Shown piece by piece: positions 2,690 to 46,894 of a DNA stretch of 64,000 nt (positions within the stretch are counted from its first letter, which is position 1; each line of letters opens with the position of its first letter). The notes below the pieces were generated by a model that saw only the letters and a list, made by a program, of their open reading frames with translations, was not told where the DNA came from and made no database searches. Origin of the DNA: Psammoneis japonica (Eukaryota). Both the position numbers and the translations under genes were made by a program. The stretch is from contig QPGO01000143.1 in NCBI GenBank assembly GCA_008632985.1, forward strand, positions 62,001 to 126,000. Direction: 5' to 3'.

Positions 2690-5600
2690 CTCATCCATCG
2701 CTGGCATTGTCTCACGAGGGAGACATTTGATCCCAACCCACTGACCAAAATGACACTCAAGTCTAGATGAGTGCATCCAAGCTGTTCACCACAATGCAGA
2801 TTTGTGATCTTGTGCCAAATGGTCTGTGCAGGACAATGGTGGGAGGAGAACTGGAACAGGAAAAATTGTCTCGCAAAGAATGGAGCTTCTGGCGTGGGGA
2901 GAGCTTCTGCCATGAAGGGTGTGTTCTGTGCAAGAGGCAGGACTTTTTTAGTTTCCAGGGAAACACTGCATGCACCTCACCAAGGTCCACAAAAAACAAA
3001 TGCTCGAGAGAGCACACACAATCTCTCACACCAAATCTGTGTGCAAAACGCAAGTGCAGCCAAGTGGCACCTCAAAACATTCCATTGAATGAGGAAAAGA
3101 ACCCAAAAGGGCTCACTGCACAAAAAGTGGGAGACTGCTGTCATCAATGCCAAGGCTTGCCCACCAATCTTCCAAAAACCTTGCAAGCCAGCACTCTGCC
3201 CAAAACTTCCAACTGGGGGCTCTTTGATTCGAGTGGGTTGGCAGTGCTTGTGATTTCCCATTTTTTAAATGTTGTGCACATTTTTTGGTGCTCTGGCACT
3301 GTCCTCCTGAACACTTGCAAGTGTGCCACATGTGCCTGCACAGCAAAAGTGCTGCACAAATGTGGCTGCTGTTGATGACCTTCAAACCCCAGTTGCTGCT
3401 TCAGCACAATTGCCAGAACAAAAGAACTGCCAATTGTGCCAAAAATGCCTTTTTTTGTGATGAGCATGCATGCTGCTGCAGCTTTGCAGGAAAAGTGGTG
3501 GTTGCACACTTGACAAGGTGTGCAAAGCCTGGGGCTGTCTCTCCACGTGCTGGCCACTGAGCTCACAAAGAGGGCCCCACATTGGCATGGTTGCTCAAAA
3601 TGCATTCTGTGTTGTCATGCAAAAGAACAGCCATGTGTTTGTCACTGGTGCTCATGTCAAGTGCTGCACACTGTCCTGGTTTCTTTGGCAGTGCAGTTGT
3701 CAGCTCTCCAGCAGCAACGGGAATCACTCGGGTCCTGAGAGTCATCACACAGAAATTGTGCAGGAGAGAACCAAAAATGACCATTGTCAGTGTCTGTCCA
3801 TCCATCATGTGTGAATGTCAACTTCTCGGAAATCAATTGAAATGCCATCTGATCGACGGCATTTTGATTCACACAGTGAAGGCCAATGCGGTCCATCAGA
3901 TGGCATTTCAACTCAGTTCCCAAAAAGTCGCCAGCTCCAATCACCCTCTCGCATGAACATTGTGTGCATTTCCACATGATTTTGTGTTTTTCCTTGTGCA
4001 AAATGTAGTTGTGACTCATGCAACATTTTCAAATGATTCCCATTGAAAGCAAGCCTGACAAAGTGACCACCACCTTCAAAGGACTGGCTTGTGCACAAAC
4101 AGGTTGCTTGAAAACTCCACACAAGCCACACACCTGCCAACTCTCACTGGCTTCTGACAGCTCTTTTTTTTTCAGCCACAAGGCATGAGGAGATTGTCAT
4201 GCTTGGGGGTTTGCAGCCTGATGCCTTCCAGCCCAAGGTGGGGTTTCACAGTGCTGATGTGTGACATGATTTTTTTAACCATGCATTGCCTGTTTTGCAC
4301 GTGCATTTCTGCATGTGATCTTCCACAGAATTGTTTCATGCTCCCAATTTTGCTGAGCCCAAGGGGCACACCACTTCTTGCTGAGAAAACTGGGGTTGGA
4401 AAAATGGCAAAACAAAGTCAAATCTTTTCCACAATGTGGAAAAAGAAAGGTGAAATGGTGCTGCATTTTGCATGGTGTGATCCCAGGAGTGAATGCTTGA
4501 CATTTTGCAATCGTTTTCAGTTTGGAGAAAAAAAACAGCCCCACCAAGGGATGACATGAATCAGATGCAGCAGAGTTCCCCTTTGACTCCACACTGTTTT
4601 TGATGTTTACAAAAGAAACTGCAGCCACGCATCCCAGTGTGATCATCTTTGAGTCCAAGCAGGTGGCTGTGCTCAAAGGAAAACTCGATGCCAACATGCC
4701 GTCCATGTGCCACCTGCGTGCAAAGATCCACATGGTTGGCATCTGAATGGCAGAGAATCATGCATTCAATGTAACTTTCGTCTGCATTGGCTCCAAACAA
4801 ATTGAGCACAAATGCCTTGAACAGGGCAATCTCCTCCCAAACTTGCTTGTTGAGCTCATTCCAACCATCGCAGCATGTGTTGCAGTGGCTGTTGTTGAGA
4901 AAAAATGTCCGTCTTGTCCACCTCTCCCAGGAATGTTTCCATCTCTGCACCATTGATGTAAAAGCACCCCCAGTTGTTGGGCATGTGCATGACCAAGGTC
5001 TTGCGCGGGTTGCTCACACGAGAGCATCTGCCACATTTTGACCAAGAATTTGCGTTCCCAGATGAGCCCATCCAGTTCATGCACAAATTTGAATAAATTT
5101 GAATGAGGACAAATTTGCCTGCACAGACATCATCATGTGTGCTGCATCACTGGAGCAAAAGTTCAAGACAGAGGAAAGTTTGGCACTCTGGGCCTTAAAA
5201 TTCTCGTTTTGAGAAATTTGGAAGTGGTTGCTTCAGTGGAATTTCCCCAGGAGGAGTGCATGTCTTCAGCAAATTGGCACCAATCAATTGAGGGCCATTG
5301 TTCTGTTTCTCATGTTCATCCTTGCTGATGATCTCAAGGCAAATGATTTTTGATTCGTTGCCGCTGCTCATGTTTGAAGATTTCTGGATGCATTGTGTGC
5401 CCCTTCAGTTGTTGTTGCATTCTTGTGCTGCTGCTGCTGTTCTCATTTTGCATCACAAGCTGCTGGCATGCTGCAGCCCTTTTTTTCAGCAAGCAGTGAG
5501 GGCCTGCAAATTCGTGGTGCAGCACAAGGGAGAGGTTGAGAAGGTTCTTGAGAGAATCTTTTGGCAAGCTTGTGTTTGCACAACTCTTGTTCTTGCTTTT

Positions 5601-5875
5601 TCCTTGGTCGTTGTGCCATTCCCACATTTCCTCACAGCTGTGCATGGCTGGCTTTGAATTTGATGCCCCACTGTTTTGTTGCTCAGTCAATTCCTTGTGG
5701 CTGCTTGAGGTTGACACTGGCTGCGGCGTCTCTCAGAGGAGGATGCAAGCAGCGCTGTGTGCCAGTGGTTGCTGGGGGGGGGGACAAGAGATGTGTGGGG
5801 GAACTTCATGTGAAACATTGTGTCAACCTGGGACACCTTTGCACTGCTGAACCATGGACAGATTTCAGTTGGTCA
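2690..5875. other. TpA- and CpG-depleted hypermutated repeat/pseudogene domain 1
   Basis: Only about 10 TA dinucleotides in about 3.2 kb, with a strong TG/CA excess. Six-frame ORFs are Cys/His/Gln-rich and almost Tyr-free. Normal composition returns abruptly at about 5878. Confidence 0.85.
3715..4045 (-). mobile_element. MITE-like element, hypermutated copy of the element at 61337..62172
   Basis: The reverse complement aligns with 61337-61465 plus 61974-62172. Degenerate TIRs caacgggaatcactcg / caaatgattcccattg; internal hairpin about 3836-3911. Confidence 0.8.
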
Positions 5876-6088
5876 TCATAGTTACATTGCGTGCCAAACC
5901 ACCACGAAGCTTGTCGTGACGTCATTGCAGTCCCGCACGAGTCGTCGACCAGCAGGCCGCGCACATCGCACAGACCGTCAGTGAAATCTCAAATCGCATC
6001 GAAATGCTTGCTCGTTTCCAGTTTGCTGTGTTGATTTTTGTTGTTGCAAGTCCGACACTTGGCTTTCCATGGGCCATAAGTCATTGCG

Positions 6089-8726: not shown

Positions 8727-8924
8727 ATGAAGTTCTCGATCGTGTCCGTATGCATGTTGGTGCTTGCCTTTGTTGGAAGGACTGTTGCCCATAAAGCACC
8801 TGCAGCTGGTGGCGTTAGGGCCAAGAGGCGTCTCAGCAAGGGCAAGGGTGGCAAGAGCAAGAGCGTAGGAGCTCCCGATACGCCGTCACCACCCCCAGGG
8901 AAGACAAAGAAACAATTCAAGTAA
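8727..8924 (+). CDS. Secreted Lys-rich 65-aa peptide, MKFS-RRL-FK family
   Basis: MKFSIVSVCMLVLAFVGRTVA signal, KRRL, SKGKGGKSKS, ends KKQFK*. Clearly similar to the genes at 2170 and 11749. Confidence 0.7.
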   Translation: MKFSIVSVCMLVLAFVGRTVAHKAPAAGGVRAKRRLSKGKGGKSKSVGAPDTPSPPPGKTKKQFK

Positions 8925-11748: not shown

Positions 11749-12186
11749 ATGAAGTTCTCTACTACGGTTCTCGTTTCAGTCATGTTGCTTCTTGCCTCCA
11801 ATGTTGGAAGCACTGTTGCAAAACCCGTGACGGCGTCGGATGGTGCAGTCAGAAGGCGTGCCTATGAAGATAGCAGCAGTTCCGATGTCGTTGAACACAG
11901 TGACAGCGGCAGCAGTGGCGGTTACATGGGCGACAGCAGCAGCAGTGGCGGTTACATGGGCGACAGCAGCAGTGAGGAGGAGTCAAAGTCATCACACAGT
12001 GGCTACTACTACAGCAGCAGCGGTAGCAAGGGCAAGGGCAAGGGTGGTAGCTCGAGCAAGAGTAAGGGCAAGGGCAGCAGTAAGAGCAAGAGCAAGGGTA
12101 AGGGTAGCTACTATGGAAGTGCCGATGGCTATGAGAAAGAAAGTAGAATGAAGGACGGCAGTGGCTCCAAGAAGAGCTTCAAATAA
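11749..12186 (+). CDS. Secreted Ser/Gly/Lys/Tyr-rich silaffin/cingulin-like protein, MKFS-RRR-FK family
   Basis: Signal peptide MKFSTTVLVSVMLLLASNVGSTVA, VRRRAY, acidic GDSSSSGGYM repeats, SKGKGKGGSSSKSKGKG, GYYY/GSYYG, ends KKSFK*. Probable 5'UTR intron 11624-11724 (GTAAGT…CCAG). Confidence 0.75.
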   Translation: MKFSTTVLVSVMLLLASNVGSTVAKPVTASDGAVRRRAYEDSSSSDVVEHSDSGSSGGYMGDSSSSGGYMGDSSSEEESKSSHSGYYYSSSGSKGKGKGGSSSKSKGKGSSKSKSKGKGSYYGSADGYEKESRMKDGSGSKKSFK

Positions 12187-12384
12187 TTTTCCCAAACACC
12201 TCATATTGCTGAAGGACGTTAAAAGCCGTCCTTCTTTTGGCAATCGAGATCCACTTTTCTTCATACCCTACCCAATAAACTTATCATGCCATTACATGTT
12301 TTTCATTTCGTTGCAAAAAGACTTGATTCTCGCGTCTCAGTGGGTGTAGCATTTGCGCACGTCAATGAACAGATAACTCTGACA

Positions 12385-13150
12385 AGGGCGACAGCAGCAG
12401 CAGCAGTAGTGACGGCGACATGAGGGACAGCAGCAGTGAGGAGGAGTCAAAGCCATCACACAGTGGCCGCTACAGCAGCAGCAGCAGTGCCGTCCTTCAT
12501 GCTACTTTCTTTCTCGTGGCCATTGCCACTTCCATGGCAGCTGCCCTTGCCCTTGCCCTTGCTGCGCTTGCTCGAGCTGCCACCCTTGCCCTTGCCACTG
12601 CTGCTGCAGTGGCCACTGTGTGATGGCTTTGACTCGGGCGCCAACTCCTCACAGATTGACTCGGTCCTGTCACAGACTGACCATTTTTGTGGAATCTTGC
12701 TCAGTCACACCGCTGCCTTTCATCATCCCAAACTGGAGTTTGCCAAAAGTCTCACTTCCTGCCCCCCAACCTGAACCCCAAACCCCAACCCTGACAGTGC
12801 AAAACTGTTTTTTCTAAATGCTGGGATGCAGAAGTGGCGAAGTGGTGTGTGTTGATTCAGTCATGGGTTCCTGTTTTTGACTTGATCTGTGACGGGCACA
12901 AGCCAATCTGTCAGGGGTGTTTTTTCCTCCAGGAAGAGCTTCAAATGATTTTTCCAAGCTTCTGTTGAAAACATCGCTGAAGGATGTTAAAAGCTGTCCT
13001 TCTTTTGGCAATCGAGACCCACTTTTCTTCATGCCCCACCCCCAACAAACCAGTCGCACAGTGCACATTTTTCATTTCATTGCAAAAAAGACTGGATTCT
13101 CGTGTCTCTCCAGGTGCTGCACATGCAAACATCAATGAACAGAGCACTCT
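12385..13150. pseudogene. Rearranged, hypermutated tandem copy of the 11749..12186 gene
   Basis: 12385-12487 is a direct copy of the mid-CDS, about 12487-12635 is an inverted copy of the 3' CDS, and about 12926-13150 is a direct copy of the stop codon and 3'UTR. TA has been replaced by TG or CA. Confidence 0.85.
12645..12917. mobile_element. Degenerate MITE-like insertion inside the pseudogene
   Basis: Imperfect TIRs cctcacagattgactcggtcctgtcacaga / tctgtgacgggcacaagccaatctgtcagg. It separates two parts of the gene copy. Confidence 0.55.
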
Positions 13151-16100
13151 TGCTTGTGATTTTTTAACCGAAAGCAATGGCACTAAAAATGAAGCACTGG
13201 ACGACAATGTGGGAGCAAACACTGAACAGTCATTTTTTTGCCCATTGCGCACAACACAAAAACAGCTGAGTGCCATCATCACGGTTTGATGAGATGCCCA
13301 TTGAAAAGAAATGATCCACAATTGTGGTTGCTTCCTCGAAACAGAGCACAACAAATGCTGTGTCTGTCTGCATCACATTCCTGTCTCTGTTGGCATGCCA
13401 TTGTGTTGAGTTTGTGGGCTGGCATCTGGCCTTGTTTGCTCTGCTGGTGACTGCAATGGACACCCACCCCTGTTCTGCCTTTGTGACACCCAGATCTTTG
13501 TCAGACTCCTCCTCTCTGGAAACTGAATCTCAGAAATGTGCTGCTGAGGTGTGCTCTGAGCTCTCTCCACCCGGCACCTTGTGACAGGCACTTTTTGCCA
13601 GCCAGCCAAACTTCTTGTTGAGTTGTCGCCACACAAAAAAGCTGATGGTTGTTTCACATGACTCTGCTGATGCACGCATTTGTGACATGATGTGCAAAAA
13701 GCCCAAACCCAAGAAAGTGCATGTTTTGCAAGATGCAAGCTTGGCTGCATGTTGCCATGCAAGCATCTTGCCAATGACAGATGGAGACCCACACAAAGCA
13801 CTCCAAAAAGGGTGCTGCAGTGTTGATGACATGAGCACCTTCTTTTTGAACCTTGTTGCAACAATTTTTCCACAGATTCTCTCACAACATGTGTGCTGCA
13901 ATGGCCTGTGATTTTCACCACTGCCAAAGAAAATGCCCATGTTGTGTGCTGCACTGTCTGCAAAATGAGCATGCTGCATGATGCACAGAGGCATTGTGGC
14001 CCAGCTTGCTTTCTAAGGAGGTTGTCCTTCAGGGCTCAAAACACTGAAGCGTGCCATGCCAGCTCTTTTGGCATTTGGAAAAAGCAGGGGCAAGTGAAGT
14101 GCCCCACTGTGTTTGCTGCTTTCACAGCCCATTTTTCAAAAATGGTCTCTTGTGTGTGTCTTGCTTTGCAGCCACACATGGGGGCAACAAAAGCGTGCAC
14201 AGCACACGAAGCAACAACCTCCCTCTGTCTTGCTCCAGAACAGCACGCAGCTCCATTTGCCATGTTGTTGCTTCTTGGCTTTCTGACAGAGACAGACAGT
14301 GAAGTTCCCACTCACACTTGCTTGGTGGCATGGGGGAACACACAAAAAAAAAGCTGTTGCAAGCTTCTGTTCCCCATGTGCAGCACAAAGTTGTGCCCTG
14401 GGAAGGTCTTCTTTGACAAGTGTGGAGACCAAAACAAAAGAAATCTGTCTCCAAGCAATCCAAACTGCCCCAACTGATGCTGCCAGCAACCAAGGCAGTG
14501 GCATCATGGTTTGCTTGCAGCTCTTACAAACCAGCTTTTGCTGCTCAGTTGTTGACAAAGAAATGACGAATGAGGAGATGCTGTGTTGAAGGCATGCTTG
14601 GCAAACAGCTGGACAGTGGGCCTGTTTGGCTGCAGCCACAACTCATTCAGTTGTGCTCAGGCAAGCCACTCATGATGAAATTCAAAGGAGGTCAATGTTC
14701 TGCTGAGACAGCTTCTTTGACTTTTTTGCAAATGCATGTGTGTTGCCAGAGACATGCGTGCCTTTTTCCTCTGCACTTTGCTGGAAAAGCAGGTTGCTGG
14801 AATTTGCCTGGGACCCTCTGTCCTCTGTCCAACAAAGCAGTGCTTCCGGCACACTTGAGCTGACCCACCTTTGTGTGGCACTCTTTTGCACATTGTCAAA
14901 ATCTTTTGCTGAGCAGCAAGAAGAGCAGCTCTCATGGTCAACATGTGGTCATGGTGGATGGTGGCAGCACTTGCATGTGTGTGGTGTGTGGACAACGCAA
15001 AAACAAATCATGAAACCCCAAGCTTTTGCTTTGCCATCAGAGAAGCAGCACAGCAAGAGAGTTGAGGCCAGTTTGACAATGTTTGGGGCACAGAAGCAAG
15101 GGTGGAATGACACACTGGCGAGGCAGCAACCCTGCCACAGTGCCAGCCATTTTCTCCAAGTGCTCCTGCTGGGCTCACCAAAGCTTTTAAGAACACCATC
15201 GCAAAGCAGCCACCAGCCACACCATGACTGGCCTTGCTGGAAGTGCTCCTCATGTGACTTGCAGCATCACACCAACTTGGAATCAGGCTGGTTGGGATTG
15301 GGGAGGTGGTGGCAAGTGCCAGCAGGGCAGGGCAGGGACGGACGACAGTTCAAAACATGCGTGGAAACCAACTGTTGCACAGACAGACTGCCACTGTGAA
15401 ACCCGCCCCCGTGTGCCCACTGCCCATCATGATGCTGAAGTGTCAATGCCGACAATGGCAAGAACAACAGTGTTGGTTCCAGGCTGTGATGCTGCTCCAT
15501 CTTCAGCACAAAAGCAGAACACACGCACAACAAGACAAGGCTTCTTCATCATGACAAGCCTCCTCGAAGGTGTCCCAGGAGAGCTCATCCAGAAGATTCT
15601 CATCCTTGCAGCTGATGACACAAAAACATTGCAGTGGTGTGAGCAAACGTGCAGAACCCTGTGTCGAGTGGCCTGCAAATGACATGATGTGGAAGCATCT
15701 TGGCAACTGTGGGGAGTTTAGAGAGGATGTCTGACTGCAGTCCAACCACGGTCATGCTTGTGTGGTGAGTGCATGCAACATGATTCGCAGGGAGCAGAGG
15801 AGGGCAACAAACATGCTCACAGACAAGCTTGGTGTGGTTGGATGGCATGATCTCCTCTTCTTGTTTGTTTCAGCCAACCACTGCCGATTCCAGTTTTGAG
15901 GTGACACCATGCTCTGCACATTGCAGAGAATTCAATTGAGGTTGCGGAGGCCACTGGCTTGCACCCAGTTTTGACAAAATGGAATTTTTGGCATTGTGCT
16001 TGTTGTTGCAGGAGTTAAAAGTGGATCCCAATGGGTTGAAGCATGGTGGTCACTTGTTGACTTTAAATTGTGAACTGGAAACACTGGGTGACAACAATGC

Positions 16101-19100
16101 CCTCCTCTGTGAACGCATCATTTGTCGGCTGCCCCACCATGCTCAAGAAGTCAGCAAAGCCAAGGACCAGCATGAGTGCAAAGGCAATGTTGACATGGCA
16201 GAACTGTGATTGCCAAGAAGGAGGAGTGTGGCATTGTGAGCACATCTGATGACAAAAGTGAGTGAGTGAGACCTGTGGCAATGTGCAAGTGACAGCGGTT
16301 TGGCAATTTGAAGATGACGATGTGATTCAACTGATCATGAAGTTGCGTCACAGTGCTTGGTCTGAGGTCATTGGTGTGTTTTCATGCACAGTGCCAACGT
16401 CTCTGCTCATGCTCATGTTGCATCTTGCCAGTTGCTTTGCTTGAGTCTCCATTGCTTTGAAGCATGAGATTGCTGATTGAGCGACACAACATGGGTGCTG
16501 TTTGAATGTTGCATGTTCCGTTTGCTGTTGCTGCTGACATTTCTGGTCTCCTTTGTTTTAGCTCTGGCCAGAAACCAAGGCAATGAGTGCCACCTCTGCT
16601 GGAATGTGTTGACAGCGCCTGTTGCAAAGAGTGCTGTCAGTGTTGATGAGGATGGCCTTGTGGTGAGTTGGAGTTCAACAAGTCGTTCATCATCCCAAAA
16701 GAAAAGTCACGTTGCAGACAGGGCAATCAAAGCATGTTGCAATCACATCAATTGCTCCACATGGGGGGTCTTGAGGATGCTGTCACTGTGTTGACACTGC
16801 CTGCTTCAATGACTCCATTTGACCCAATCAAGGCAAATGAAATCAAACAATGTGTGCATGGATTTAAAAAAATCCAGTGTGAAGAGTGGTGCTGCAAAAG
16901 TGGTCCTTCTTCATTTGGGTGTCAAAGACATGCAAACACATTCATCACACCCCAGCATGTGAACTGCAGAGCTTGCAAGTGGAGTTCTGTGGGCCCAAGT
17001 CACATGATGGAGTGCTGCCCAAGGCTGGAGCTCATTGGCAGGGGGCTTGCATCCACATGATGCATGTCATGTGCTCTGTGCACTTTTTTGTGGCACTGCT
17101 GCTTGCTGCTGTGATGCTTCATGGTGTGCAATGGAGGTGGCAAGTGAGCTTTGGTCCAGTGCAAATGGGTCCAGCAGGGTGTTGGCTCCTCAATTGGGTG
17201 GATGGAGGCAGGCATGCAGGGGAGGGGGGGGCAAACAAGCAGCAGAGCTGCCAATGCTGGGGCCATGTGGGGTGGTCCAAAAAACTCACAATTAAGATTT
17301 GAAGCAAAGGCCAGGAGTCAGGGCATGGCAGGCACACTCTAACTCCAGGTGGGGTGCTTTTGGAGACATTCTAAAAAAGAGCTTGTCAAAAAAGCAGCAT
17401 CACACAGAGAACAAAGATGTGCATGTAATTTTGCCCCACCACGGGGGCAAAACTTGTCAAAATTGAAGGAGGGCTGGTTCAGGTGCACATGTGATCTGTG
17501 CCGGGTGGACGACTGTCCTTAGAGAAGGGAGAGCTCTGTTGCACAAAATTTTGCAATGGCAAACTTGGGCAGATCTCATCATGCAAGTGAAAGAGCAGCC
17601 TGTCAACACCACCTCCTTTTTTAAAAAAGATGCCATTTGCTCTTTTGTCATTCCTGCCAGCTTGAAGATGCCACTGCCAGCTCTCGACAGTCACTGTCTC
17701 AGAGCAGAGCCACCAAGAGATGTGGCACCACCCCTGGCGGGCAGTGTGTGGGGTGTGGGCTTTTTTTCATGCAGCCAATGCCTCTGCCAATGTGGGTTTG
17801 AGCACTGCAGTGGAGCTGATTTGCCACAAACTTGGCCAGTTTTTGTTGTCATTTTGTGGGGGAGAAAAGCATTTGCTTTGAGGATGATGATCCTCACTCA
17901 TGGAGGGCTTTGAGGATGATGACCCTCACTCACAGAGGGCTGCCCAGACTCAATTGCCAAAGGGAGCAACAACCAACCCAACCTCAAGAAATTTCATTTC
18001 TCACTCTTTTTTCTCACTCTTTGTCCTCTGAACAATGGGGTGCAAGAAGAGCAACAACCAACCAGTGGCACTGAAAAATGCAGCATGAGCTGTCATTCAG
18101 TTTTGCTCTTTTCCTCACTCCCCACACCACAGCTCCAGCCCTTGCACAAAGAAGCTGACCACATTTGTCAACACACACACTGCACTCTTGTGCACAGCCT
18201 TTCCCACGAGGTGTTGGCTGCTTCGCACTTGTTTCTTGGCTTCTTCTGCAGGAGAACATCCTTGATTGGGTGCTCAAGAAATGGAAAATGGGTGTTGCAC
18301 AAAAGGCACAGCAAACAATTGTGGTGATGGGACCGCACACCATGTGGTTTTGGAGCCAAGTTCTTCCCACCCAGTTCCTGATGGGCTTCATTGCTGCAGG
18401 AACTTGTGAGTTTGATGACAATTTTCTCATTTGCATCCTCTTGTCAGCCAAGAAATGTGTGCTCAATGGGTTCTTTGCAAACAAGGCCTCACAGAAAATC
18501 TTCACCTTGATGCCGTCATTTTGCATTGGAGGCTCCTTTGGAGTGAAGGCTGAGACTTGACATCCTCCTCCATTGGACTTGTGGCAGCAATGGATTCTCC
18601 ATGCCAGCCAATCATGCAGATGCTAAAAACTGACGCACAAGGCATGCAAAGGCAACCCTGCTTCAGTTTCAGGTGTCATCTCTGTGGGACATTGACAAAA
18701 GAAGGCACATTGGAGCCAAGTGGTTGCACACAAATGCAGCCCCAGACAACCCCATTTCTTGGCTCAAGACCTTGAGCATCAACCAAGGACAACAATGTGT
18801 TTTGAAGGATCATCCTGCTGGCCTGCCCAGCAGCAAACATGCAGCAACCAGCATTCTGGAGGTGTGGGCCTGAATCCCCTTTTCCCTTCTCATTCTCATG
18901 CTTCACATTGAAGAACAAGAAATCTTGTCTGCTTGACCCATCTGGGGGTCTTTGGTTCCAGATGCTTCTCTTGCTCTGATGCCAAGGCCCAGCAGAGTGG
19001 CAACGCATTTCTGCAGAATGGCACTGACAATGTTGTGCTGAGCATTTTCCAATGTGAAGCCATGGGGCATTGTTGTGACCAGCTCTGTTTGAAGTTTCCA

Positions 19101-21141
19101 ATCAACAGCCTCTGGTGAGCTTGTTTCTAAGATGTCTGAGATTTCTGTGCAAAAGTGTGGTGCATGAGAGATGCACTTGTCAAAGATTTCCTGCTGGTTG
19201 AAGACAGAAGATGGTGTGCTCTTGTTTCTGCTGCCAGTGAACCCAGCTGTCTTCCTGGCCAGTGTTGGCAACTGTGAATGCCAAAGGTGTTGGAAGGTTG
19301 TTGAATCTCCTGCAGTCATCACACTTTTGTTTTTTTGCTCCTTGTTTCTGAACAAAAGCCAAAGAATTTCAATGCAAAAAAGCTTGTTTCCCAGGGATGC
19401 CTCAACAATTGCTTCCTTCATTTCTTTCATTCCTGTCAACACCATCCCATTGTTCCTGAAACACTGCTGTGACAATGGCTTGTTGGCAAGATTCAGCTCC
19501 ACCAGACAATCGGCAAGCTCTTTTTGTGTTTTTTGTTCCATCCACACATCTTTGAATGTGTGCTCTGCTGCTTCCTTAAAGTCATGTTTTTGACAAAGTC
19601 TCCAACAGCTGGAAAATGACAACAATGACAACAACACCATCTCCCTCCTTTTTTCTTGTTTCAGCGACCCTGGGTGTGTTTTGTGCAACTTGTGCATGCT
19701 GCACCCACCTTGCCAACATTTCTTGGCCTGTCCATCATCAGGGATTGATGACCTTCTCCTGCATGTGTTGCGAAGTCCACTTGGAAAGACACCAACAGGT
19801 GCAGCACGGTGCTTTTCACAAGTTGATTGATTGCAAGGATCACTCAAATGCAGTGAAGCCATTGCCAGTGCATGCAACAACATGTCCACATTTGTTGCCA
19901 GCGCTGACAAGGTGATCATGATGAGCCATGTTGGATTTAGAGAAGAGGAGCTCAACGGCATTCGTGGCCTCTGGCTGAGGCTGCCTCCTTCAAAAAGATG
20001 GTGCCAACACTTTGTTTTGTGTGCTTGCTTGGTCTTGGTGCCAATGCCTGCTGGTTGTTGTGCATTTCCATCAACCTCAATTAATTTGGTGCCACCTTGC
20101 ACCACTTGTTGCCTGCCAAACTGCCAAACCAGCATCTTCCTTTAATGTGCAATGTGCCTTTGCTCATTTCATGGGCTTGTCCACATTGTTCATTGAGATT
20201 GCTGCAGAGCTGCTGACAAAATGGGAATCATGGAATTGTGCTCAGGATTTCAGAGCAAAATCTTTGCAACAACCTCAAAGGGACACCGCGGCCTTGCAAT
20301 TTCCCCAACACAGCAATTTGGCTCAGATTCAGCAGTGGGCAAAGGAAGTGAGGGATTTGGCACCCATGGTTGATGGCCAATGACCCCTCCTTGAAGCACT
20401 TGAAGGCCACAAGCTGTCAAAGAGAGTGCACAGTGGAGCAAACAGAAGTTGCACACTGGCTCTGCAGCATGCTGCAAGTGGCAGATGTGAAGTGTTGGAG
20501 ATGCATGTCATTGCCTTGTTGGTGGCCATGGCAATGATTGGTCAGATTTTCTTGTTCCTCTCTCCCAAAAAGCATCTTGCAAGGTCTCCAGCAGTTTCAG
20601 AATGTGACATTTCATTGTGTGCTCTTCCAGCTGTTGAGGCTCTTTTGGCGCAACTGCAACAGAAGATTTCACTCCCTTTGGCAATGCCAAATCAGAGGCA
20701 ATGCACTGCATGTCTTGTGGTGGTGCAGTTGTGCCAGGTGGATGAACATTGAGATCACCAGCACTGCAGCAGTGAAGAGATGCCTTTCTGTTGGTCCACA
20801 TTGCTTCCTGGAGATCTGCAAAATTGTCAAAAGGCCTTTTGACCTTGACCTTCTTCTCAAAGTTGTCACTGGCACAGACTGTCACACCACACCACATCTG
20901 CTGCCATGGTGGTCCAATGGAGTCCAGCATGGTGTGGCAGAAAAGTGAATTTCTGCTTCATCTTTGACACAAACTTAACAACACATGACAACAATGGTCT
21001 CTGCCATTTGATTCTTTGTGGATGATGATGCACAAAACCAAAACCACTCATCACTCTGTTTGTCTCATCTCTTGGCTTCAAAAAGGCCCCAAAACCAGAG
21101 CATCTGTGTGTCTGAAAGACCACCCCAACTTTTAAAATTTC

Positions 21142-21143
<2 letters not shown>

Positions 21144-21183
<40 letters not shown>

Positions 21184-21265
21184 CGTCGTCGCTGTTGTCA
21201 TCACTGTTGTCGCTGTTGTTGTCGCTGTTGTCGCTGTTGTTGTCGCTGTTGTTGTTGCTGTTGTC
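21144..21265. repeat. (TTG)n / (GTC,GCT,GTT)n trinucleotide microsatellite
   Basis: About 13 pure TTG units followed by degenerate gtcgctgtt units. Would read as poly-Asn/Asp/Ser on the minus strand. Confidence 0.9.
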
Positions 21266-24200: not shown

Positions 24201-24899
24201 TGGGCTGCGCTTTGGCTCCATCTGCTGTGTGTTGTGTTCGTGCTCTAAACTTGGCATCTTTTGGGGTTGCCACCACACATGATGTTTGGTTGACATGAAG
24301 CAACTGAAGCTGGACTGCCTCCAATCAAAATCACATGCAACCAATCGGACCAGAAGCCCACACCTTTTCTTGCTCAGAAGCACTGCCCGCCAGGGGGTGC
24401 TTCGACTCAAGCGTGTGGGGGCTCTCAACCCCGCTGTGAGTGCTCCTCAGTGCGCAGGTTCAAACCATCCATTTGACTCTTTGATGTGTCTTTCTTGCTC
24501 TTTCTGTGTGCAATCAGATGCAGACTATTTTTCAATCTTGTTGGGCCAAGCAATTGCAGATTTGGCCACAGTCTCTGTCATTTTCAAAGTTTGTTTTGCA
24601 CACTGTGTGATCAAATCCTTGCTGCAGCATTGTTTTCCTCCAATCCACTGCCCACCAAGATGAAATGAGATGTTCCATAACCAAGAAGCGTTCTGCACCT
24701 GACAAGATTGGTGGCACTCATCTTGCATTTGATGAAAGATGGCAATGTGGAACGAAGCAAAGAAAGGGAAAAGTGAAAAGAGGTTTGTCACAAAGCCTTT
24801 AACTTATGGGCACTGCGCAATCCCAGCAGTCCGCGCCGTAGACTTCTACGTGTCTCTCACTGTCGCGTCATCGTTGGGGGTTGGGGGCCATCATGGGCT

Positions 24900-27779: not shown

Positions 27780-29340
27780 AGAGAAAGGGATGGATGGCGG
27801 CATTTTGCATCCAATGCAAATGACTTTGTGTTAAATGATCTTTTCTTTCCGTGCTGGAGAGTCATCGCTGGCACAGAGAAATTGTGTGGGCCAGAGGTCA
27901 AGGAAAACAATGTGTGCGCCCCGACTTCCAGCACACCGCAAGTTTGCAGGAAGCGACTCTTGCAGTGCTGCCCCTCACCAAGAGCCATGTCATTGCACGT
28001 GCAGAGTGAAGTGCGCTGGGCAAGCAGGGCTTCACCTGGCTTGCAGCAGCTGAAGTTGTCAGCACCTGGATGCCGCTGCTCTGCAGTGCATTGGTGCGCT
28101 GCAGCTGGTGCTAAGATATGATCAAATGCCTTGTGTGCACACTCTTTGGAAGAAGAGTGATTTTCTCAATGAAAAGCACAGGTGCCCCTGCCAATGACAC
28201 AGCGCATGCACAGCATGAGGGCAGCTGCAGCCGCTTTCTGCCTTGTGTGATGACACAACTGGTGCTGCCAGGCTGTTGCACAAGAGCTTGTTTTTTGCAT
28301 GTGCGCTGTTTGCCTCTGTGTGTCACATGGTGCGTGATGTGCTCCAGCCCCACCCCAGCTGAGCAGGACTGAGCATGTGACATGGGCCCACAAAGCTCCC
28401 CGTTTGCGAGCTCTGTGCAGCTCAGCAATGCATTGGTGTGGCCAATGTGTGCATTTGTCCTCAATGCCCAAATGAATGACTGTGTTTGTGGTGCAACCAC
28501 ACCTCTCAATGCTCAAAGTTTTTGAAGCAAATTCATCAAGAATTGCGCTGTTGTGTGCAAAAAAATGTCAGAGTTGTCGAGCAGATGACCCAACAACTGC
28601 TTTGTGAAGTTGCACCAAAGTGCCAGCAAAGTCATGCAAAACACATGTGCATGACATGCAGCATGTCTCAAGAGCTTGTCAATGTTGCAGCTCAGCAGCA
28701 TGAGGTCCCACCAAGAGCTGGAACACACCACATGCATTTCTGCACACAGCAGCACTTTGCAAAATTGTTCGCAAGCTCCGCAGCTGTTTTGCAAAGCCAA
28801 AGGCCATTCATTGTGTGGCCACTTTTGAGAACAAAAATCAGCTCTTTGGGCATGTTCTTCAATTTCTGAAGAAGAGAGAAAAAAGAAACAACAAAAGTGG
28901 CACACACGTTTGTCAAGCATGTGGAAGAGCGGGGCTGGGCGACAGCGTCATTTCTCTGCCTCTTTTCCTGCCAGCATTTGTTGGCTTGCTTGCTGCAATG
29001 CAAGTTTGCTGCAGGGCTTGCATGTGGGATTCTGTGGGCCCAATGTCACATGGAGTCCCCTGACCAATGGCTGTTGGATCGCATGCATGCGTTCTTGTTG
29101 TGTGCTGCACGTGCCCTCCTCTTTTGCTCTGTGTGCTGCTCTCTTTGGAAGCCAGAGAGGGGGCTGGCTGAGGGCTTGAATGTGAACCTGCAGTGCTTGG
29201 GTGGGGACACTCACACCCACCATGACACTTGGTCAGTCTGTCATGGAGCAGCACCCAGCATGGGACAATTGTTTGTTGAGTCTTCCATCAAACCCACAGG
29301 GCACCAGGGAGGCACAGACCACTCTGTGCGGTGTGTGCGT
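27780..29340. other. TpA-depleted hypermutated domain 3
   Basis: Almost no TA between about 27840 and 29339 (only around 28112-28118), with a TG/CA excess. Ends about 150 bp before the bestrophin start codon. Confidence 0.85.
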
Positions 29341-38590: not shown

Positions 38591-38714
38591 TAGATGATGG
38601 TCAATGCTCCTCGTTTTGTTGCAACAGTATCGTGGTTGAAAAAGTCGTTTTGCTCTGGCTGCGAAGGAAGGAAAGCACTCTTAAGCCTCATCAGGAAAAC
38701 TCTGATCAACGAAT

Positions 38715-40687: not shown

Positions 40688-41262
40688 GGTGTTTTGAGAA
40701 GTTGTGAAAAAGTGGGAGACTTGTGATTTTTCTCGTTTTACAGGAAAATGCTCCGTAGAACAGAGAGCCAAAGTGTGTGAATGTGTGAGTGTCAGAAACA
40801 AGAAGTTCTGTTCATGTATGTGCTCCCATGAGTTGCTTTGTTCTGTTTTTTCATGCCGTTGCGGTATTGGTGTGGGGGACCAAAGCTCTGAAGCTTTTTT
40901 CTCAAGACCACTTTGTCGAAATTACATAAAGGAAGCTTTTGATGTGAATCTCGTAATTATAGAAACGACGATTGTGCTTGAAGATATGGTCATTATGTCG
41001 TTTCTTATCGCGATCGATTGTTGCGTTGATGGTTGGGATGATGTTCTTTGTTTAACAGTAGTCATTTCAGCGTCTGTCCAGAACTTGACATCTAAATATT
41101 TCAGTGTAATTGGAATGTCTATGTTGTGACCATATTTAGGGGGGAGGTCATCTGTTCGTCTGTCCAAAATCCATGATTGCCTAATTATTTCATTGTGATG
41201 GAAATGTCCCTTTTGTGACAGCTTTTTGCTCGAGCGAAGATAGAATGTGACTCCAGACTGGT

Positions 41263-41444
41263 TGAATGAGATAGGCACATGTACTCTATGGCCGAGTGTG
41301 CCCTCTCTGATGTGTGTACATTAACTAACGCATTAGACATTCAAGAAGCCGTTAGAAGTCAGTTCCGATCAGCGATTGCACTGATCGGGTCTCTTCTCGG
41401 TTCTCTCACAACTTTTGTCAAGTCATCTCAAGCTAGATCTTGCA
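41263..41444 (+). repeat. 5' LTR
   Basis: tgaatgag…tcttgca; 15 mismatches to the 3' LTR by manual alignment. Confidence 0.95.
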
Positions 41445-41890
41445 CTGCAATTGCAGTCGTTGTTGTGGCTTGTTCATTGCATTGTCAACTTTATGACAAC
41501 GCGAAGAGTGTCATCGAGAAGAGAGAAAATTTGTTTGCGAGCTCGAGCAGAAAATTTCATTCGAAGTAGATCAGAATCGCAGTGCAATTGCACTCGTGAA
41601 ATTGGCGATTCGGAGCAGCGGTTGTTTGAACTCGAAGCTCGTGTTGCCACCATTGAATTCGTCATTGTTTGATTGTTGATTGTTCTCGTTGTGTGGATCA
41701 ACTGGGAACGCCTTGTTTTGTTTGTCTTTTGTGGATTGTTGATTGTTTGATCGCTGAAATTGTTCATCGCCATGTGTCAAGAAGCCTTGGAGAAAGCCTG
41801 TGTTGAGCATGAGACCAAATTCGTGGACTCTGAATTGCAGGAGGTGAAGCTCACTCAAACCTTTTTGATTGTGGCACTAAACTTTCAAAA

Positions 41891-42952
41891 ATGTGTCCTG
41901 TTTTCACAGGAGAGCATGGAATTGAATCATTGTTGCATGTGGAGGACAGGTTCCGGAAGGTGGCAAGACAGCTGGATTGTGATGCCGGAACAGAGTTGTT
42001 TGATGCTTTCCAGGATTGTCTCCAAGGTGCTGTGGAGGTGAAATGGCAGAACATTGCTGCGGGTGTCCAACAGAATCAACGGACGGCAGCTTGATTTGAT
42101 CAGGCTGTCTTGGCCTGTCATCCACGCTGCGTGAAACTGACAGCTCGTGACACAATGAAGATGCATTTGCCTGCTTGCAAAAAGCCTTGCTCAGCAGAAT
42201 CTGAAACTCACATTGATCGCATGGAAACATTGTTCCATTGTGCTGGCCGTTTGCCTGGAGCCGTTCCTGAACTTACAGAGCAGGAGCAGAAAAATGTCAT
42301 CTTTTGTGCCTTCCCTTTGACCTGGCAGCAGTCCTGCATTCGTGCGGGCAAGAACCTTGTCACGGATTCTATGGCAGACATCCAAGCCTGCATGAGCAAC
42401 GAGAAGGTGTTCGCCAATGGTCAAGACAACAAGAAACGCAAGTCCAACAATGGCAATGGAGGGAACTCCAGCAACAAAAAGGGCAGCCGTGACAAGAAGG
42501 ACAACAAGGGCCAACCGAAAGCAAATGATCCATGTCCGGTCCCGTGGCACCATGGAAGGCACACATGGGGCCAGTGTTGTGACAACCCAAACAATCCTGA
42601 CTGTCGTGGGCCTCAGAACCGTGGCGGTCGAGGAGGAGGCCGTGGCGGTGGAGGTCGTGGCGGAGGTCGTTTCCAAGGAGGCCGTGGTCAAGGCCATGGA
42701 GGCGGTGGATGCTTTGGTGGTCATGGCAACCAGAACCAAGGAGGTCGTGGTGCCCATCATAACAACAACAATGGACATCAGAACAACAATGGCAACCAAG
42801 GTGGTGGTCAACATTGTTGTGGTGAAAACAACAACCATGGAGGCCAAGGACAGGCCAACGGATGTGCTGCTCAAGCAGACAATGTGAACAATGACAACCA
42901 GGCTCGAGAAGCTTCTCGTGGTGATGTGCACCATTTTGACATGATCGGATGA
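41891..42952 (+). pseudogene. Gypsy gag relic (start approximate)
   Basis: Zn-knuckle-like CPVPWHHGRHTWGQC and RGG/Asn/Gly-rich tail; in-frame stop at about 42092. Confidence 0.7.
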
Positions 42953-43274
42953 GGCCCTCCAAGATGCGGAGGTGTGGTGAGGTTTCAGCCAGATGGGCAG
43001 TTTCCTCGGCAGTTCTGAGAAGAAGGAGCTGAGTGCTCCAGAGCTGAATGCTCCCAATTGCCTGTGAAAGAAGCATTTGTTGATGAAAATGATTGTGTTT
43101 TGCCTGAATGAAATGATGAATGTTTTGCTTTTGATTGTTTTGAAAATCCTGACGAATTGTTGCCTGTTGAATTTGAAAATGCTGCAGAAAATTACATGAA
43201 TGAAGAGGGGGTGTGTTTGATCAAGACGCATTTGAACACAACATTCCTCTCCCCAAAATGAACTTGCAAGTCTC

Positions 43275-46200
43275 GTGCACCGCGTTGGTCCCATCTACAC
43301 TGCTTGTTGCAAAATCAATCCAACAGATGAGTCGAGTCGAGTGATGCGTGTTTTGTTAGATTTGGGTGGTTTTCACACTGTGATCTGTCTCAAGTTTCAC
43401 CTCGAGGAGCCGTGCCATCTGTTGATGAACATGGAGTCCGAGCTTTTCAAACCATGGCAGGTCCTTTCCAATCGGGTCATTGGGTGGCCTTAAACTGGGA
43501 GGATTGACGGCTGTGTGGCTCACGCATTCGATGCTCCGTGTGCGCATGACATCATTTTGGGTCAAGATTTCTTGGACAAGATTGGTCTCAACCTGAGCTA
43601 CGATGCAAGGATGCTGCGATGGCTGGACCGTGTGATCCCAATGAAGGAACCTCGTCATTGGTCCAAATCCTGCAATTGGCATGTGGCTTTAGACCGAATG
43701 GATGAATTTGATGAAGATTGCAAAGACGAGTCGGGCTGTGGGTGCGACGACGGATGTGACACCTGCACGCTCGACACCAAGCATGAAGCAACGAATCCAG
43801 TGGAAGTGGTTCGGAACTTGGACCATCTCACGGAAGAACAAAAGAAGAAGCTGTCAGCGGTGTTGGAAAAATGTTCAACTTTGTTTGACGGAACGTTGGG
43901 GCACTGTCCTCATGAAAAGGTGCACCTTGAAGTGGACGAAAATGCTGTTCCACATCACTCAAAACTGTTTCCTGTTGCTCGAGTTAATGAAGAAGCGCTC
44001 AAAAAGGAATTGAAGCATTCAGTGAATCTCGGCACACTTCGACCATGTGGACCTGCGGAATGGGCAGCCGGTGCCTTTGTTGCTCCAAAGAAGGACGGAC
44101 GAGTGCGATGGGCATCCGATTTTTGGGAGCTCAACAAGGTCCTCAAACAGAAAGTGTGTCCTTTGCCAGTTGTTCAAGATGTGCTGCAGTGGAGAGCGGG
44201 CTACAAATTCTTCACGAAACTGGATCTCACTGTGCTCTACTGCAATTTGGAGCTGGACGATGAAAGCAAGGAGCTCGCTGCGATTGCAACTCCGCACGGG
44301 AAATTCCAGCATTGTCGCATGGCCATGGGATTAAAGCCAGCTCCAGATGTTGCTCAGTCCATTGTTGAAAAGATTCCACATGGTTTGGATGTTGAAACTT
44401 ACATTGATGACATTGGCGCGTTTGACACTGACTTTGATTGCCATCTCTCTTGTCTTGACAAGGTGCTGCATCATCTCAAGGAGAATGGTTTGAAAGTCAA
44501 TCCATCAAAATGCGAGTGGTGTGTTCAAGAAACCAATTTTCCAGGGCATTGGCTTGCTCCAACTGGTGTTAAACCATGGAAAAAGAAGGTCGAGGCGATC
44601 CTGCGAATGCAACCTCCACGGAACACTACACAGCTCCGATCGTTTCTCCGTGCAGTGACCTGCTGTCGCAACATTGTGGCCTCGCCGTTCTCACCTGCTT
44701 GCACCTCTGACTGAATTGACAGGCAAGAGTCAGTTCCAATGGACAGAATCATGTCAGAAAGCATTCGAGGAGATGAAGGCAGTGATCACGGCAGAAGCGT
44801 TGATGGCCTGCCCTAACCACAACCCACCTTTCCATGTCTGCACCGATGCATCAGACTGCCAGATGGGTGCCGCTGTCATTCAAGATGGCAAACCTGTGGC
44901 GCACTGGTCTAAGAAGCTCTCGGCGGCTCAACGCAGCTGTTCAACAATGGAGAAGGAACTCCTGGCCGTCGTCATGTGCTTCAAGGAATTTCACTCAATG
45001 TTGCTCGGTGCTGAAATCACTGTTCACACTGATCACAAAAACCTCACCTTTCGCACTTTGAATGTGCAGCACGTCCTTTGTTGGTGACTGTTCCTCAAAG
45101 ATTTTGCACCTGCATTTGCGCATGTCGAAGGCAAGGACAACGTGCTTGCCGACTGTTTTTCTTGTCCACCACGCATGGATCTGCCTTCGGAGGGAAAGAG
45201 CCTTGGGCTGAGCAGCAAACGCAAAGGAAAAATTGTTCATTTTGAAAAGTTGGATTCCAGGGAACTGAGCAGGGCCGAGGAAGAGGAAGATTTGGAGTTG
45301 GGCGCTTGCAGGTTCAAATGTTGCCGTGCTCCTGTTGATCCTTCTGATGAGTCTCACACCGCCTTTTCCTCTCTGCTTGACGAGCCCAAATTGTTTGAGT
45401 GCTTTTTGAATTGCCCGACACTGGACGAAATGCAGAATCCCACTGAGACACCAAGGATGCAACAGTTCCAGTTCGAAGACCTCCAACTGAACCAGCAAAG
45501 ACAACAAAATCCGCAGCAGTTTGTGGTCAAGATTGTGAACCATCATCCCCTGATTTGTTGTCGTTTGCATCTGAATGATCCACCTGGAGCCTGGAAAATT
45601 TGCGTTCTTGCTGCGTTGTTGCCGGATGTCATTGCGTGGCATTGTTGTGCATTGGGCCATTGTGGAGTCGTGCGATTGCATGAAAGTGTTTGGACTCACA
45701 TGTGTCATCCTGCATTGCGTCGACGTTGTAATGAATTTGTTTGCGACACATGTCAACGATTTAAACAACTGGGTCCTGGACATGGAGAATTGCCTCAACG
45801 TCAAGCGCCATCAGCTCCATGGATGGAAGCAGCAGTTGATCTCATTGGACCGTGGAAAATGCCGATTCAAGATCAAGAGATTGAATTTAGCACTCTCACT
45901 TGCGTTGATGCTGTCACTGGATTGACTGAACTCGTGCGCACTGACAACAAAACTTCTCAGCATGTGACCAACAAGTTTCGCAATCTTTGGTCAGCTCGTT
46001 GTCCCAGACTGAATCGATGCATCCATGACAATGGTGGAGAATTCATTGGTTGGGAATTTCAAATGCCACTAAATCAAGCGGGCATTGCTGATGCACCGAC
46101 GACATCTCGAAATCCTGCAGCCAACTCCATTTGTGAGCGAATGCACCAGACGGTGGCCAACATCTTGTGCACTGTGGTTGTCGCCAACCCACCTTTGAAT

Positions 46201-46600
46201 GTTCAACAGGCTGAGTAGATTGTGGACGATGACCTTGCTGCAGCCTCTTGTGCTTTGCGATGCTCCCACTCAAGGTCTGTGGGTGTTTCAAGTGGAGCTC
46301 CAGTGTTTCAGCGTGATGTGATTTTGGACCTGCCTGTTGTTTCCGACCTTGCTGCAATGCAAGCCAACCGACAAGTGTTGATCGACGAGAACCTGCGACG
46401 ACAGAATGCGAAGCGCCATTCCTGTGATTATCTGGTTGGTCAAGATGCGTTGGTCAAGTCGGTGGATCCTTCAAAGTTGGAAGAACGAGCCCATGGTCCG
46501 TTTCGAATTGTGCAAGTCCACGCCAACGGGACTGTTTCAGTGCTGTGAGCACCGCACGTCATTGAGCGAATTAATGTTCGCCGCGTGGTGCCGCATCGGA
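43275..46600 (+). pseudogene. Gypsy pol relic (protease, RT, RNase H, integrase)
   Basis: VLLDLGG and DIILGQDFL (PR); KKDGRVR, TKLDL, TYIDD (RT); TDASD, EKELLA, TDHKNL (RNase H); H-H-C-C, VDLIGP, HDNGGEF, ERMH, GPF (IN). Carries stops and frameshifts. Confidence 0.9.
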
Positions 46601-46712
46601 GTTGAGGGTTTCTTCCCAACGTCTGGGTTCCCTTCTCCATGCGCATTGGGTTTGAATTTTAGTCAAGTGGTTCCAATGGTGCGCGTGTTCCTTGCGCCAT
46701 GGAAGGGAAGAG

Positions 46713-46894
46713 TGAATGAGACAGGCACATGCACTCTATGGCCGAGTGTGCCCTCTCTGATGTGTGCACACTAAATGATGAATTGGATGTTCAAGAAGCC
46801 GTCAGAAGTCAGTTCCGATCAGCGATTGTGCTGATCGGGTTTCTTCTCGGTTCTCTCACAACTTTTGTCAAGTCATCTCAAGCTAGATCTTGCA
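46713..46894 (+). repeat. 3' LTR
   Basis: Preceded by the PPT and followed by TSD CTGGT. Confidence 0.95.

Follow-up and report, generated by a model that had tools for sequence, protein, structure and literature searches.

Targeted hypermutation as a eukaryotic defence is understood mechanistically only as cytosine deamination, in fungal repeat-induced point mutation (RIP) and in the action of APOBEC enzymes, and the sources consulted contain a single report of an A/T-directed counterpart. That report concerns mutation accumulation in Bigelowiella natans, where, in the portion of the preprint consulted, TpA changes to TpG or CpA in place in integrated viral DNA at ~6e-7 per site per generation (Mettrop et al., bioRxiv 10.64898/2026.01.13.699255). 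According to the same text, the mutation rate of two integrated viral regions exceeds that of the remaining genome ~1000-fold, nearly all changes are A>G/T>C, every one of them lies at a TpA, and reverse-transcriptase and DDE Pfam families are over-represented among TpA-depleted coding sequences; the authors, who cite work on amphioxus ADAT2 acting on DNA, propose an ADAT2-like DNA adenine deaminase (bioRxiv 10.64898/2026.01.13.699255). Here we describe the footprint of such a process in the diatom Psammoneis japonica, in a stretch of 64,000 nucleotides (GenBank assembly GCA_008632985.1, contig QPGO01000143.1, positions 62,001 to 126,000 of the forward strand; hereafter the window, numbered from its first letter). 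Four domains of the window, D1 to D4, have lost almost all TA dinucleotides, and D4 forms the interior of a Ty3/gypsy long terminal repeat (LTR) retrotransposon. The same signature is already described in another alga of the SAR assemblage (stramenopiles, alveolates and rhizarians); it is new for diatoms, is saturated, and can be tied to a sequence code and, in one datable element, to conversion after integration. A first-pass annotation of the window had known of no description of such a process in diatoms. Full-text literature searches likewise returned no diatom report of TpA hypermutation, but the B. natans preprint now describes the process in another host.

Comparison with B. natans reveals the same change of A:T to G:C only at TpA, giving TpG and CpA, in invading DNA and far above background. 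The two cases differ in host, a chlorarachniophyte (Rhizaria) there and a diatom (Stramenopila) here, and in target, which in the consulted text is viral DNA and here is an LTR retrotransposon together with repeats of unassigned family. The giant-virus region of B. natans is reported there at a TA observed/expected ratio (obs/exp) of 0.45, in contrast to saturation at 0.02-0.08 here. The main text of the preprint, as far as consulted, gives no context beyond TpA, whereas here a flank rule applies in which T-A-Y is favoured and T-A-A is refractory (Y, pyrimidine; R, purine). CpG decay runs alongside in the present case, and the B. natans text presents a real-time measurement where we have a fossil record.

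Fungal RIP resembles the process described here in being transition-only, dinucleotide-specific and sharply local and in killing transposons within the genome, and the term 'inverse RIP' used by the first-pass annotation is a fair analogy. The polarity of RIP is the opposite of the present one, since C is changed to T at CpA and new TpA and stop codons arise. Duplication is its prerequisite and neither copy escapes, in contrast to the untouched partner copies seen here; RIP also depends on RID, a cytosine-methyltransferase-like protein. Diatoms have DNMT4 relatives of RID according to the consulted part of one study (PMC9998398). These relatives would act on cytosine. APOBEC3 likewise hypermutates LTR retroelements in a dinucleotide context, but does so by strand-specific cytosine deamination (plus-strand G>A) before integration, whereas A/T pairs are changed here, on both strands and at least in part after integration. 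TadA, ADAT2-3 and their offshoots (fungal TAD2/TAD3 mRNA editing) turn A into inosine, read as G, with an obligatory 5' U/T, and the natural TadA site U-A-C resembles T-A-Y; these enzymes act at single sites on RNA loops or single strands, in contrast to saturation of both strands over kilobases of chromosomal DNA. Deamination of 5-methylcytosine explains the accompanying loss of CG to TG/CA; it leaves TA alone, is slower and is separable from the TpA change.

TA-purged domains and their presence in reads

TA obs/exp was obtained from sliding windows and from a dinucleotide table for each domain of the 64-kb window. D1 (2765..5880, no strand) is CpG-poor repeat DNA of unassigned family with 10 TA observed and 129 expected, and its dinucleotide table gives obs/exp of 0.05 for TA, 0.20 for CG, 1.83 for CA and 1.81 for TG. 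D2 (12504..24678, no strand) extends the same TA-purged, CpG-poor character over 12 kb (35 TA observed, 505 expected; table ratios TA 0.04, CG 0.15), and D3 (27833..29340, no strand) holds a high-copy repeat (2 observed, 63 expected; TA 0.02, CG 0.29). D4 (41568..46429, + strand), the purged interior of the gypsy element, has 24 TA observed and 202 expected (TA 0.08, CG 0.65). Together the four domains contain 71 TA versus ~900 expected, with Poisson P values for the deficit of 1e-24 to 1e-165, whereas the remaining 41,214 bases of the window have a TA obs/exp of 0.57. TA-free gaps extend to 1223 bases within a domain (D3) but to no more than 211 outside, where the median gap is 14. Obs/exp for CA and for TG rises to 1.48-1.94 in D1-D4 compared with ~1.2 outside, and CG depletion accompanies the loss of TA in all four domains.

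Domain edges lie ~100-300 bases from genes with normal TA, as seen in a survey of edges within the window, and the first-pass description of four sharply bounded TA-poor domains beside normal-TA genes is borne out by these ratios. One boundary needs correction. The D4 tract exists as described, but it starts at ~41.45-41.57 kb and not at 41.3 kb; the 5' LTR keeps normal TA density. Confinement to transposon or repeat domains, also claimed at first pass, agrees with the normal TA of nearby genes and with the gypsy identity of D4, most of D1-D3 being unassigned.

The bases were compared with sequencing reads from one public sample (one study, three runs) by way of the contigs of run X1. Accurate reads are indicated for this run by a word depth of ~58 and a longest record of 315 kb. 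Four X1 pieces of 2.5-3.7 kb span D2 at 99.5-99.8% identity, with 13, 11, 9 and 6 differing letters. Since contigs of accurate reads carry the same TA-free letters over D2, the TA-free sequence is present in the reads and is no base-calling artefact, X1 possibly being the source of the assembly itself. A modified base that is read differently on each strand would be expected to break contigs every few dozen bases. Of the differences between window and run, the best-supported 40 were tallied (149 more lie beyond the tally). Among these 40, CG stands against TG/CA in 19, six are transversions, and three have TA in the run where the window has CA/TG. The CG-type differences fit ongoing CpG decay between haplotypes or strains. 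The three TA-type differences were considered as a sign of ongoing TpA activity, a reading that was rejected because they do not exceed the yield of generic transitions and are unpolarised.

Polarity, flanking code and timing of TpA loss

The gypsy element (41263..46894, + strand) is bounded by TG..CA LTRs and by a perfect 5-bp target-site duplication, CTGGT, at 41258..41262 on the left and 46895..46899 on the right (both +), which identifies it as one insertion. It contains the Pfam domains RVT_1 (E 4e-17) and RT_RNaseH_2 (E 5e-27), and tblastn matches cover 41870-42601 (gag-like) and 43248-46599 (pol). The pol gene (protease-reverse transcriptase (RT)-RNase H-integrase; 43254..46599, +) is dead, with a frameshift near 44671 and four in-frame stops (TAA, TGA, TAG and TGA). 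Searched with a profile of 40 reference open reading frames (ORFs; hmmsearch), it scores E 9e-164 in frame 0 and E 6e-242 in frame 1, and comparison with homologs shows it to be of diatom type.

Related gypsy loci from metagenomes served as outgroups; these 78 loci derive from the best-scoring 80 of 454 and are biased to intact copies. All 78 have a TA obs/exp of 0.45-1.00, compared with 0.08 in D4. Per kilobase, the relatives carry 55.0 TA, 66.5 TG, 76.5 CA and 46.4 CG, whereas D4 carries 4.9, 113.1, 83.9 and 38.9, respectively. The sum of pyrimidine-purine (YR) steps is conserved, at 244.4 per kb in the relatives and 240.8 in D4. That is to say, the outgroups set the polarity as TA to TG/CA. 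Host genes or distant relatives gave an unstable baseline for TA>TG versus TA>CA, and site-level counts were used instead. For these, D4 was aligned to the profile of 40 reference polyproteins, and columns in which at least half of them have Tyr were taken as conserved. At 34 such columns D4 has Cys 13, His 9, Phe 6, Tyr 5 and Met 1 times, and a test confined to RT gives His 4, Cys 4, Phe 2 and Tyr 2 over 12 columns. Six of the seven fully conserved Tyr columns are lost, while other conserved residues are mostly kept (G 34/40, W 14/17).

Homologous pairs within the window are real but few, totalling ~1 kb; they comprise the two LTRs, a duplicate at the D2 edge and a D1 repeat with a copy near 62 kb, the last two described below. 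Where the copy outside a domain has TA (49 aligned sites), the domain copy has CA at 16, TG at 18, CG at 2, TA at 6 and other letters at 7, and the reverse case, TA inside against CA/TG outside, occurs 0 times. In all, 36 of the 49 TA sites became CA, TG or CG, and the first-pass observation of TA>TG and TA>CA in internal pairs holds. Recoding to purines and pyrimidines raises identity from 91.9 to 98.9% for the LTRs, from 77.9 to 90.8% for the D2 edge, and from 83.5 to 97.0% and from 83.7 to 93.1% for D1 versus the 62-kb copy, so the divergence consists almost entirely of transitions. The pairs, the Tyr columns and the conservation of YR steps thus agree on A:T>G:C transitions at TpA, seen as TG and CA, as first proposed. 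A>G on one strand and T>C on the other are indistinguishable, being changes of the same base pair.

TA survival in D4 is 0.089, equivalent to 2.4 hits per site. Background change in the LTRs amounts to 4 events in 182 bases, or ~1.1% per LTR, and TpA has changed roughly 100 times faster than other sites, a ratio with wide uncertainty. Selection for avoidance of TA was considered as a cause and rejected, given the loss of 6/7 invariant Tyr, the conversion of non-coding LTR sequence and the predominance of nonsynonymous T|A>T|G over synonymous C|A. As a separate observation, 16 of the 24 residual TA of D4 fall within 43193-44910 (1.7 kb, protease-RT; rough binomial P ~0.001), a segment that also accounts for 4 of the 5 conserved Tyr codons still present, including the one at 44400 that belongs to the YxDD box. 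Selection is an unlikely cause of this cluster, given the loss of six of seven invariant Tyr.

Inspection of the surviving sites reveals a marked dependence on flanking bases. The 70 residual TA tallied in D1-D4 comprise RTAY 1, RTAR 8, YTAY 15 and YTAR 46, against background shares of.30,.27,.27 and.16 (chi-square 136, P 2e-29). Survival is 0.4% for RTAY, 3.3% for RTAR, 6.3% for YTAY and 32% for YTAR. A model of two independent half-sites, with survival of 0.061 for a good half and 0.568 for a poor one, predicts 3.5% for sites with one good half, compared with 4.7% observed for RTAR and YTAY combined. There is accordingly a strong tendency for the target to be T-A-Y on either strand (R-T-A on the opposite one), with T-A-A refractory; T-A-Y is readily hit and T-A-A poorly, and YTAR sites therefore survive. 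In D2, 29 of 35 residual TA are TTAA, CTAA or TTAG. CTAG, which has no survivors in the D1-D4 tally, is an exception to the YTAR rule.

The protein-coding record of D4 reflects the same dependence. Tyr codons that follow a purine became His 9 times and Cys twice, whereas those that follow a pyrimidine became Cys 11 times and His 0 times, with Tyr kept in 5 (Fisher P 2e-4). Ile>Val (10/30), Met>Val (3/12) and Thr>Ala (4/28) sum to 17/70, 14 of these after T, in contrast to 1/53 for Lys>Glu (0/30) and Asn>Asp (1/23) (P 5e-4). Relative to the related loci, codon usage per 1000 falls from 20.3 to 0.9 for TAT and from 15.5 to 4.5 for TAC. Codon boundaries per 1000 fall from 22.0 to 0 for T|AT, from 18.2 to 0.9 for T|AC and from 23.2 to 6.3 for T|AA, the loss of T|AA being matched by a gain in C|AA. 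This flank dependence is new here.

The LTRs allow part of the conversion to be dated. The 5' LTR (41263..41444, +, 182 bases) is essentially unconverted and retains 9 TA, while the leader that follows it is already TA-poor. The 3' LTR (46713..46894, +, 182 bases) has 3 TA left, in CTAT, CTAA and CTAG, and its conversions all lie within its first 91 bases. The pair differs at 15 bases, which represent 13 events: six of TA versus CA/TG, with TA always in the 5' LTR (4 of CA type and 2 of TG type), one of CG type, two of CA (5') versus TG (3'), two other transitions and two transversions. Because the LTRs were identical at landing and now show six TA-type differences, all with TA in the 5' copy, at least part of the conversion came after integration. 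The first-pass inference of action on double-stranded DNA finds support in these LTRs of a single insertion, as some changes arose on integrated DNA. The converted tract, which spans from roughly where the 5' U3 region ends to the 3' U3 region, appears to match the expected transcript.

Both strands were affected. Paralog pairs show 18 TG to 16 CA; D1-D3 are symmetric, with TG:CA of ~1.1 and no skewed 1-kb block; and the Tyr sites of D4 divide 13:9 (Cys:His).

CpG decay accompanies the TpA change as a separate and slower process. At 33 CG sites in the pairs, 14 became CA or TG. Conserved Arg is changed in 15 of 40 columns of D4, 12 of these being CpG-type changes, and D4 has lost 91% of its TA but 16-35% of its CG. 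A further case is protein P0135, which belongs to another gypsy family on a 2.3-kb contig. Compared with a 67%-identical relative, P0135 keeps Tyr at 0/32 positions (His 16, Cys 12, Phe 3, Val 1; no reverse change) and shows Leu>Pro 7 to 0, whereas Arg is kept at 41/46 with no CpG-type change. The two processes are separable because P0135 shows TpA loss without Arg loss and because CG stands at 0.65 in D4 while TA stands at 0.08. Among 262 homologs scored, four gypsy reverse transcriptases from public protein data carry the Tyr-loss footprint besides D4, with Tyr-to-Cys/His changes per covered Tyr column of 11/11 in P0135, 5/7 in P0199, 7/10 in P0228 and, as a partial footprint, 5/10 in P0272. 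Homologs from Cylindrotheca closterium and Cyclotella cryptica lack the footprint.

Candidate process and competing explanations

We consider it probable that these domains record an in-place, domain-directed conversion of A:T to G:C at T-A-Y on either strand, most simply by a DNA adenine deaminase. A host process would rewrite A:T to G:C at TpA inside transposon and repeat domains, acting on both strands of integrated DNA until TA has all but disappeared. Chemically, adenine would be deaminated enzymatically to hypoxanthine, which is read as G, and a candidate TadA/ADAT-like deaminase would read a 5' T and a 3' pyrimidine on the attacked strand. It may be aimed by marks of silenced or transcribed transposons; a transcript-linked aim is suggested because the datable element has its 5' U3 spared and its 3' U3 hit. 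The expected effect is mass missense change (Tyr>Cys/His, Ile/Met>Val, Thr>Ala, Leu>Pro/Ser, Val>Ala), together with the erasure of signals that contain TA; stop codons, which RIP generates, would not arise from such conversion. The first-pass term 'repeat-directed' is not supported, as three partner copies that lie just outside the domains escaped conversion, namely the 5' LTR, the repeat copy at 61337-62172 and the segment of the parent gene at 11924-12380.

Several observations weigh against this proposal. We know of no natural adenine deaminase that acts on chromosomal DNA at such a scale, and it may be T, not A, that undergoes the chemical change. None of the 78 metagenomic relatives is TA-depleted (the best 80 of 454, mostly intact copies), although their unconverted state is no sign that the process is rare. 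For the greater part of D1-D3 a transposon origin cannot be demonstrated. Compared with the relatives, D4 has gained 42 TG per kb and 6 CA per kb, with a reference spread of 5-8 per kb per class; this composition suggests a much stronger sense-strand lean than the 13:9 of the Tyr sites, and a lean in D4 is likely, of perhaps ~2:1. The direction of conversion is only partly set by the flanks: RTAR sites in the paralog pairs went ~5-6 times to CA and 5 times to TG (hand tally, n ~11), and GTA codons in D4 mostly became GTG. The spared 5' LTR could also stem from editing during reverse transcription. Finally, the read check rests on a single sample of unrecorded library type that may be the assembly's own.

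Editing before integration would invoke ADAR/ADAT-like activity on RNA (sense A>G, giving TG) and on minus-strand cDNA (T>C, giving CA), such that elements land TA-free and domain edges are insertion edges. The sharp boundaries are in keeping with this, as is the right edge of D4 at the end of the element, and a spared 5' U3 is expected if the minus-strand U3 is edited after plus-strand strong-stop synthesis; 4/6 LTR-specific TA events are of the predicted CA type, and the composition of D4 leans to sense-strand TG. The other two LTR events, however, are of TG type, and the two sites with CA in the 5' and TG in the 3' LTR are the opposite of the prediction. A partly inverted duplicate of a host gene is converted only inside D2, D1-D3 are strand-symmetric, a single passage would have to saturate both strands to an extreme 91-98%, and an element without six of seven invariant Tyr could not cycle alone. 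Editing of RNA alone would give sense A>G only and identical LTRs, whereas His accounts for 9/22 converted Tyr and the LTRs show 6-8 differences of TA type. The B. natans precedent, in the consulted text of the preprint, also works on resident DNA, and we regard pre-integration editing as unlikely. An in-place change of thymine would fit the same domains, in that sequence cannot separate A>G from T>C at the palindromic TpA and the motif reads equally well as R-T*-A: a TET/JBP-like oxygenase would make 5-hydroxymethyl- or 5-formyl-uracil at R-T-A in silenced chromatin, and T>C would follow from its mispairing with G. In dinoflagellates and kinetoplastids TpA is the favoured site of thymine hydroxylation, and 5-formyluracil is known to mispair with G. 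To our knowledge no such thymine modification is known in diatoms, a point for which the literature was not searched, and conversion above 95% with almost no transversions, as indicated by recoded pair identities of 91-99%, would be unusual for such a lesion; we therefore give the thymine route little weight.

Error-prone repair by DNA polymerase eta (Pol eta; WA>WG, W being A or T), which the first-pass annotation had listed among its candidates, or biased mismatch repair concentrated in heterochromatin, would draw on the fact that TA is the hottest Pol eta motif. In contrast to what such repair would leave, AA is undepleted (obs/exp 1.28-1.37 versus 1.16), T-A-A is refractory, Lys/Asn to Glu/Asp changes number 1/53 and the specificity for TA is near absolute, all of which makes this source very improbable. 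An equally remote prospect is that no mutation took place, the TA deficit being a base-calling or assembly artefact or a property of intrinsically TA-free DNA shaped by selection or foreign origin. The possible identity of the confirming run with the assembly's own sample speaks for an artefact; against it stand high-depth kilobase contigs with the same letters, normal TA in 78/78 relatives, destruction of invariant Tyr in catalytic domains, an affected non-coding LTR, and a diatom-type gypsy pol with a target-site duplication.

Genomic setting and implications

The genes of the window encode ribosomal protein L34e, a bHLH-PAS protein and RING and PHD proteins, as judged by Pfam, and a DUF938 protein whose best named homologs, at 54-60% identity, are in the raphid pennate diatoms Seminavis, Cylindrotheca, Fistulifera and Nitzschia. 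This content is eukaryotic, and the analysis placed the host among raphid pennate diatoms. The Pfam scan covered 114 window ORFs of at least 120 aa and a further 92 ORFs of 75-119 aa from D1-D3, D5 and 61380-62300. It returned no deaminase domain among window ORFs, in agreement with the first-pass statement that no causative gene is present in the window. No ORF of at least 120 aa within D1-D3 matches a Pfam family, nor do any of the 92 shorter ORFs. A tblastn search with 150 gypsy homologs matches D4 alone within the window, and a self-search after purine/pyrimidine recoding reveals no further large repeats there.

The identifiable content of D1-D3 consists of three segments. At the left edge of D2, a scrambled local duplicate of the 3' end of a neighbouring gene (12382..13150, no strand) aligns in + and - pieces to its unconverted parent (11924..12380, +; the 3' part of ORF 11473-12183 and downstream sequence, with normal TA density). 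Its identity to the parent rises from 73-83% to 90-97% upon recoding; parent TA aligns with CA/TG in the copy, which is converted only in the part that lies inside D2. In D1, bases 3715-4045 (~330) are homologous to an unconverted copy of the repeat (61337..62172, -), whose segments 61337-61467 and 61973-62172 flank a 505-base insert and whose TA aligns with CA/TG in D1. This repeat contains an imperfect palindrome of ~90 bases (61968-62056 and 3828-3920), converted on both arms in the D1 copy. In D3, the repeat at 28659-29275 has a summed word depth of 3554 in run X1, compared with ~50-65 in its flanks, or ~60 times single-copy; copies counted in this high-copy family are at least 90% like the TA-free copy. 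The first-pass statement that all identifiable content of the domains is transposon or duplicated DNA holds for the gypsy element, the gene duplicate, the D1 repeat and the D3 repeat, but the rest of D1-D3 has no family match.

Two further tracts were noted. A weaker TA-poor, A-rich tract, D5 (60255..61379, no strand), has 12 TA observed and 47 expected (obs/exp 0.16). D5, absent from the first-pass list, is 33% A and 20% T and adjoins the copy of the D1 repeat that escaped conversion. Because the YTAR bias of D1-D4 is not seen among its own residual TA, D5 may be something else, and its membership in the TA-purged set is uncertain. Two copies of a 170-base tandem repeat (48968-49291, 78% matches) lie in normal-TA DNA beside the L34e gene. 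Within 41568-46429, many long overlapping open frames without a family match occur on both strands (42194-43294 minus and 44998-45810 minus among them), and these can mislead gene callers. With no TAA or TAG stops, TA-free tracts lead to long spurious ORFs in annotation.

A broader reading, which we advance only tentatively and hold to be somewhat less probable than its negation, is that diatoms and chlorarachniophytes share an old SAR-wide defence. A candidate DNA adenine deaminase would be guided to transcribed or silenced invaders and would erase T-A-Y in place on both strands, the converted tract of a retrotransposon corresponding to its transcript. If true, this would be a mirror image of fungal RIP with a code of its own, in which RTAY is the best site and TTAA and CTAA are the worst. 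The diatom footprint means that the TpA process is no quirk of one species and that it is separable from CpG methylation decay, and the T-A-Y code is a constraint to be satisfied by any candidate enzyme. Converted elements in protein databases can be found simply by their Tyr-to-Cys/His footprint, and the question now stands in a group with genetic tools and many genomes.

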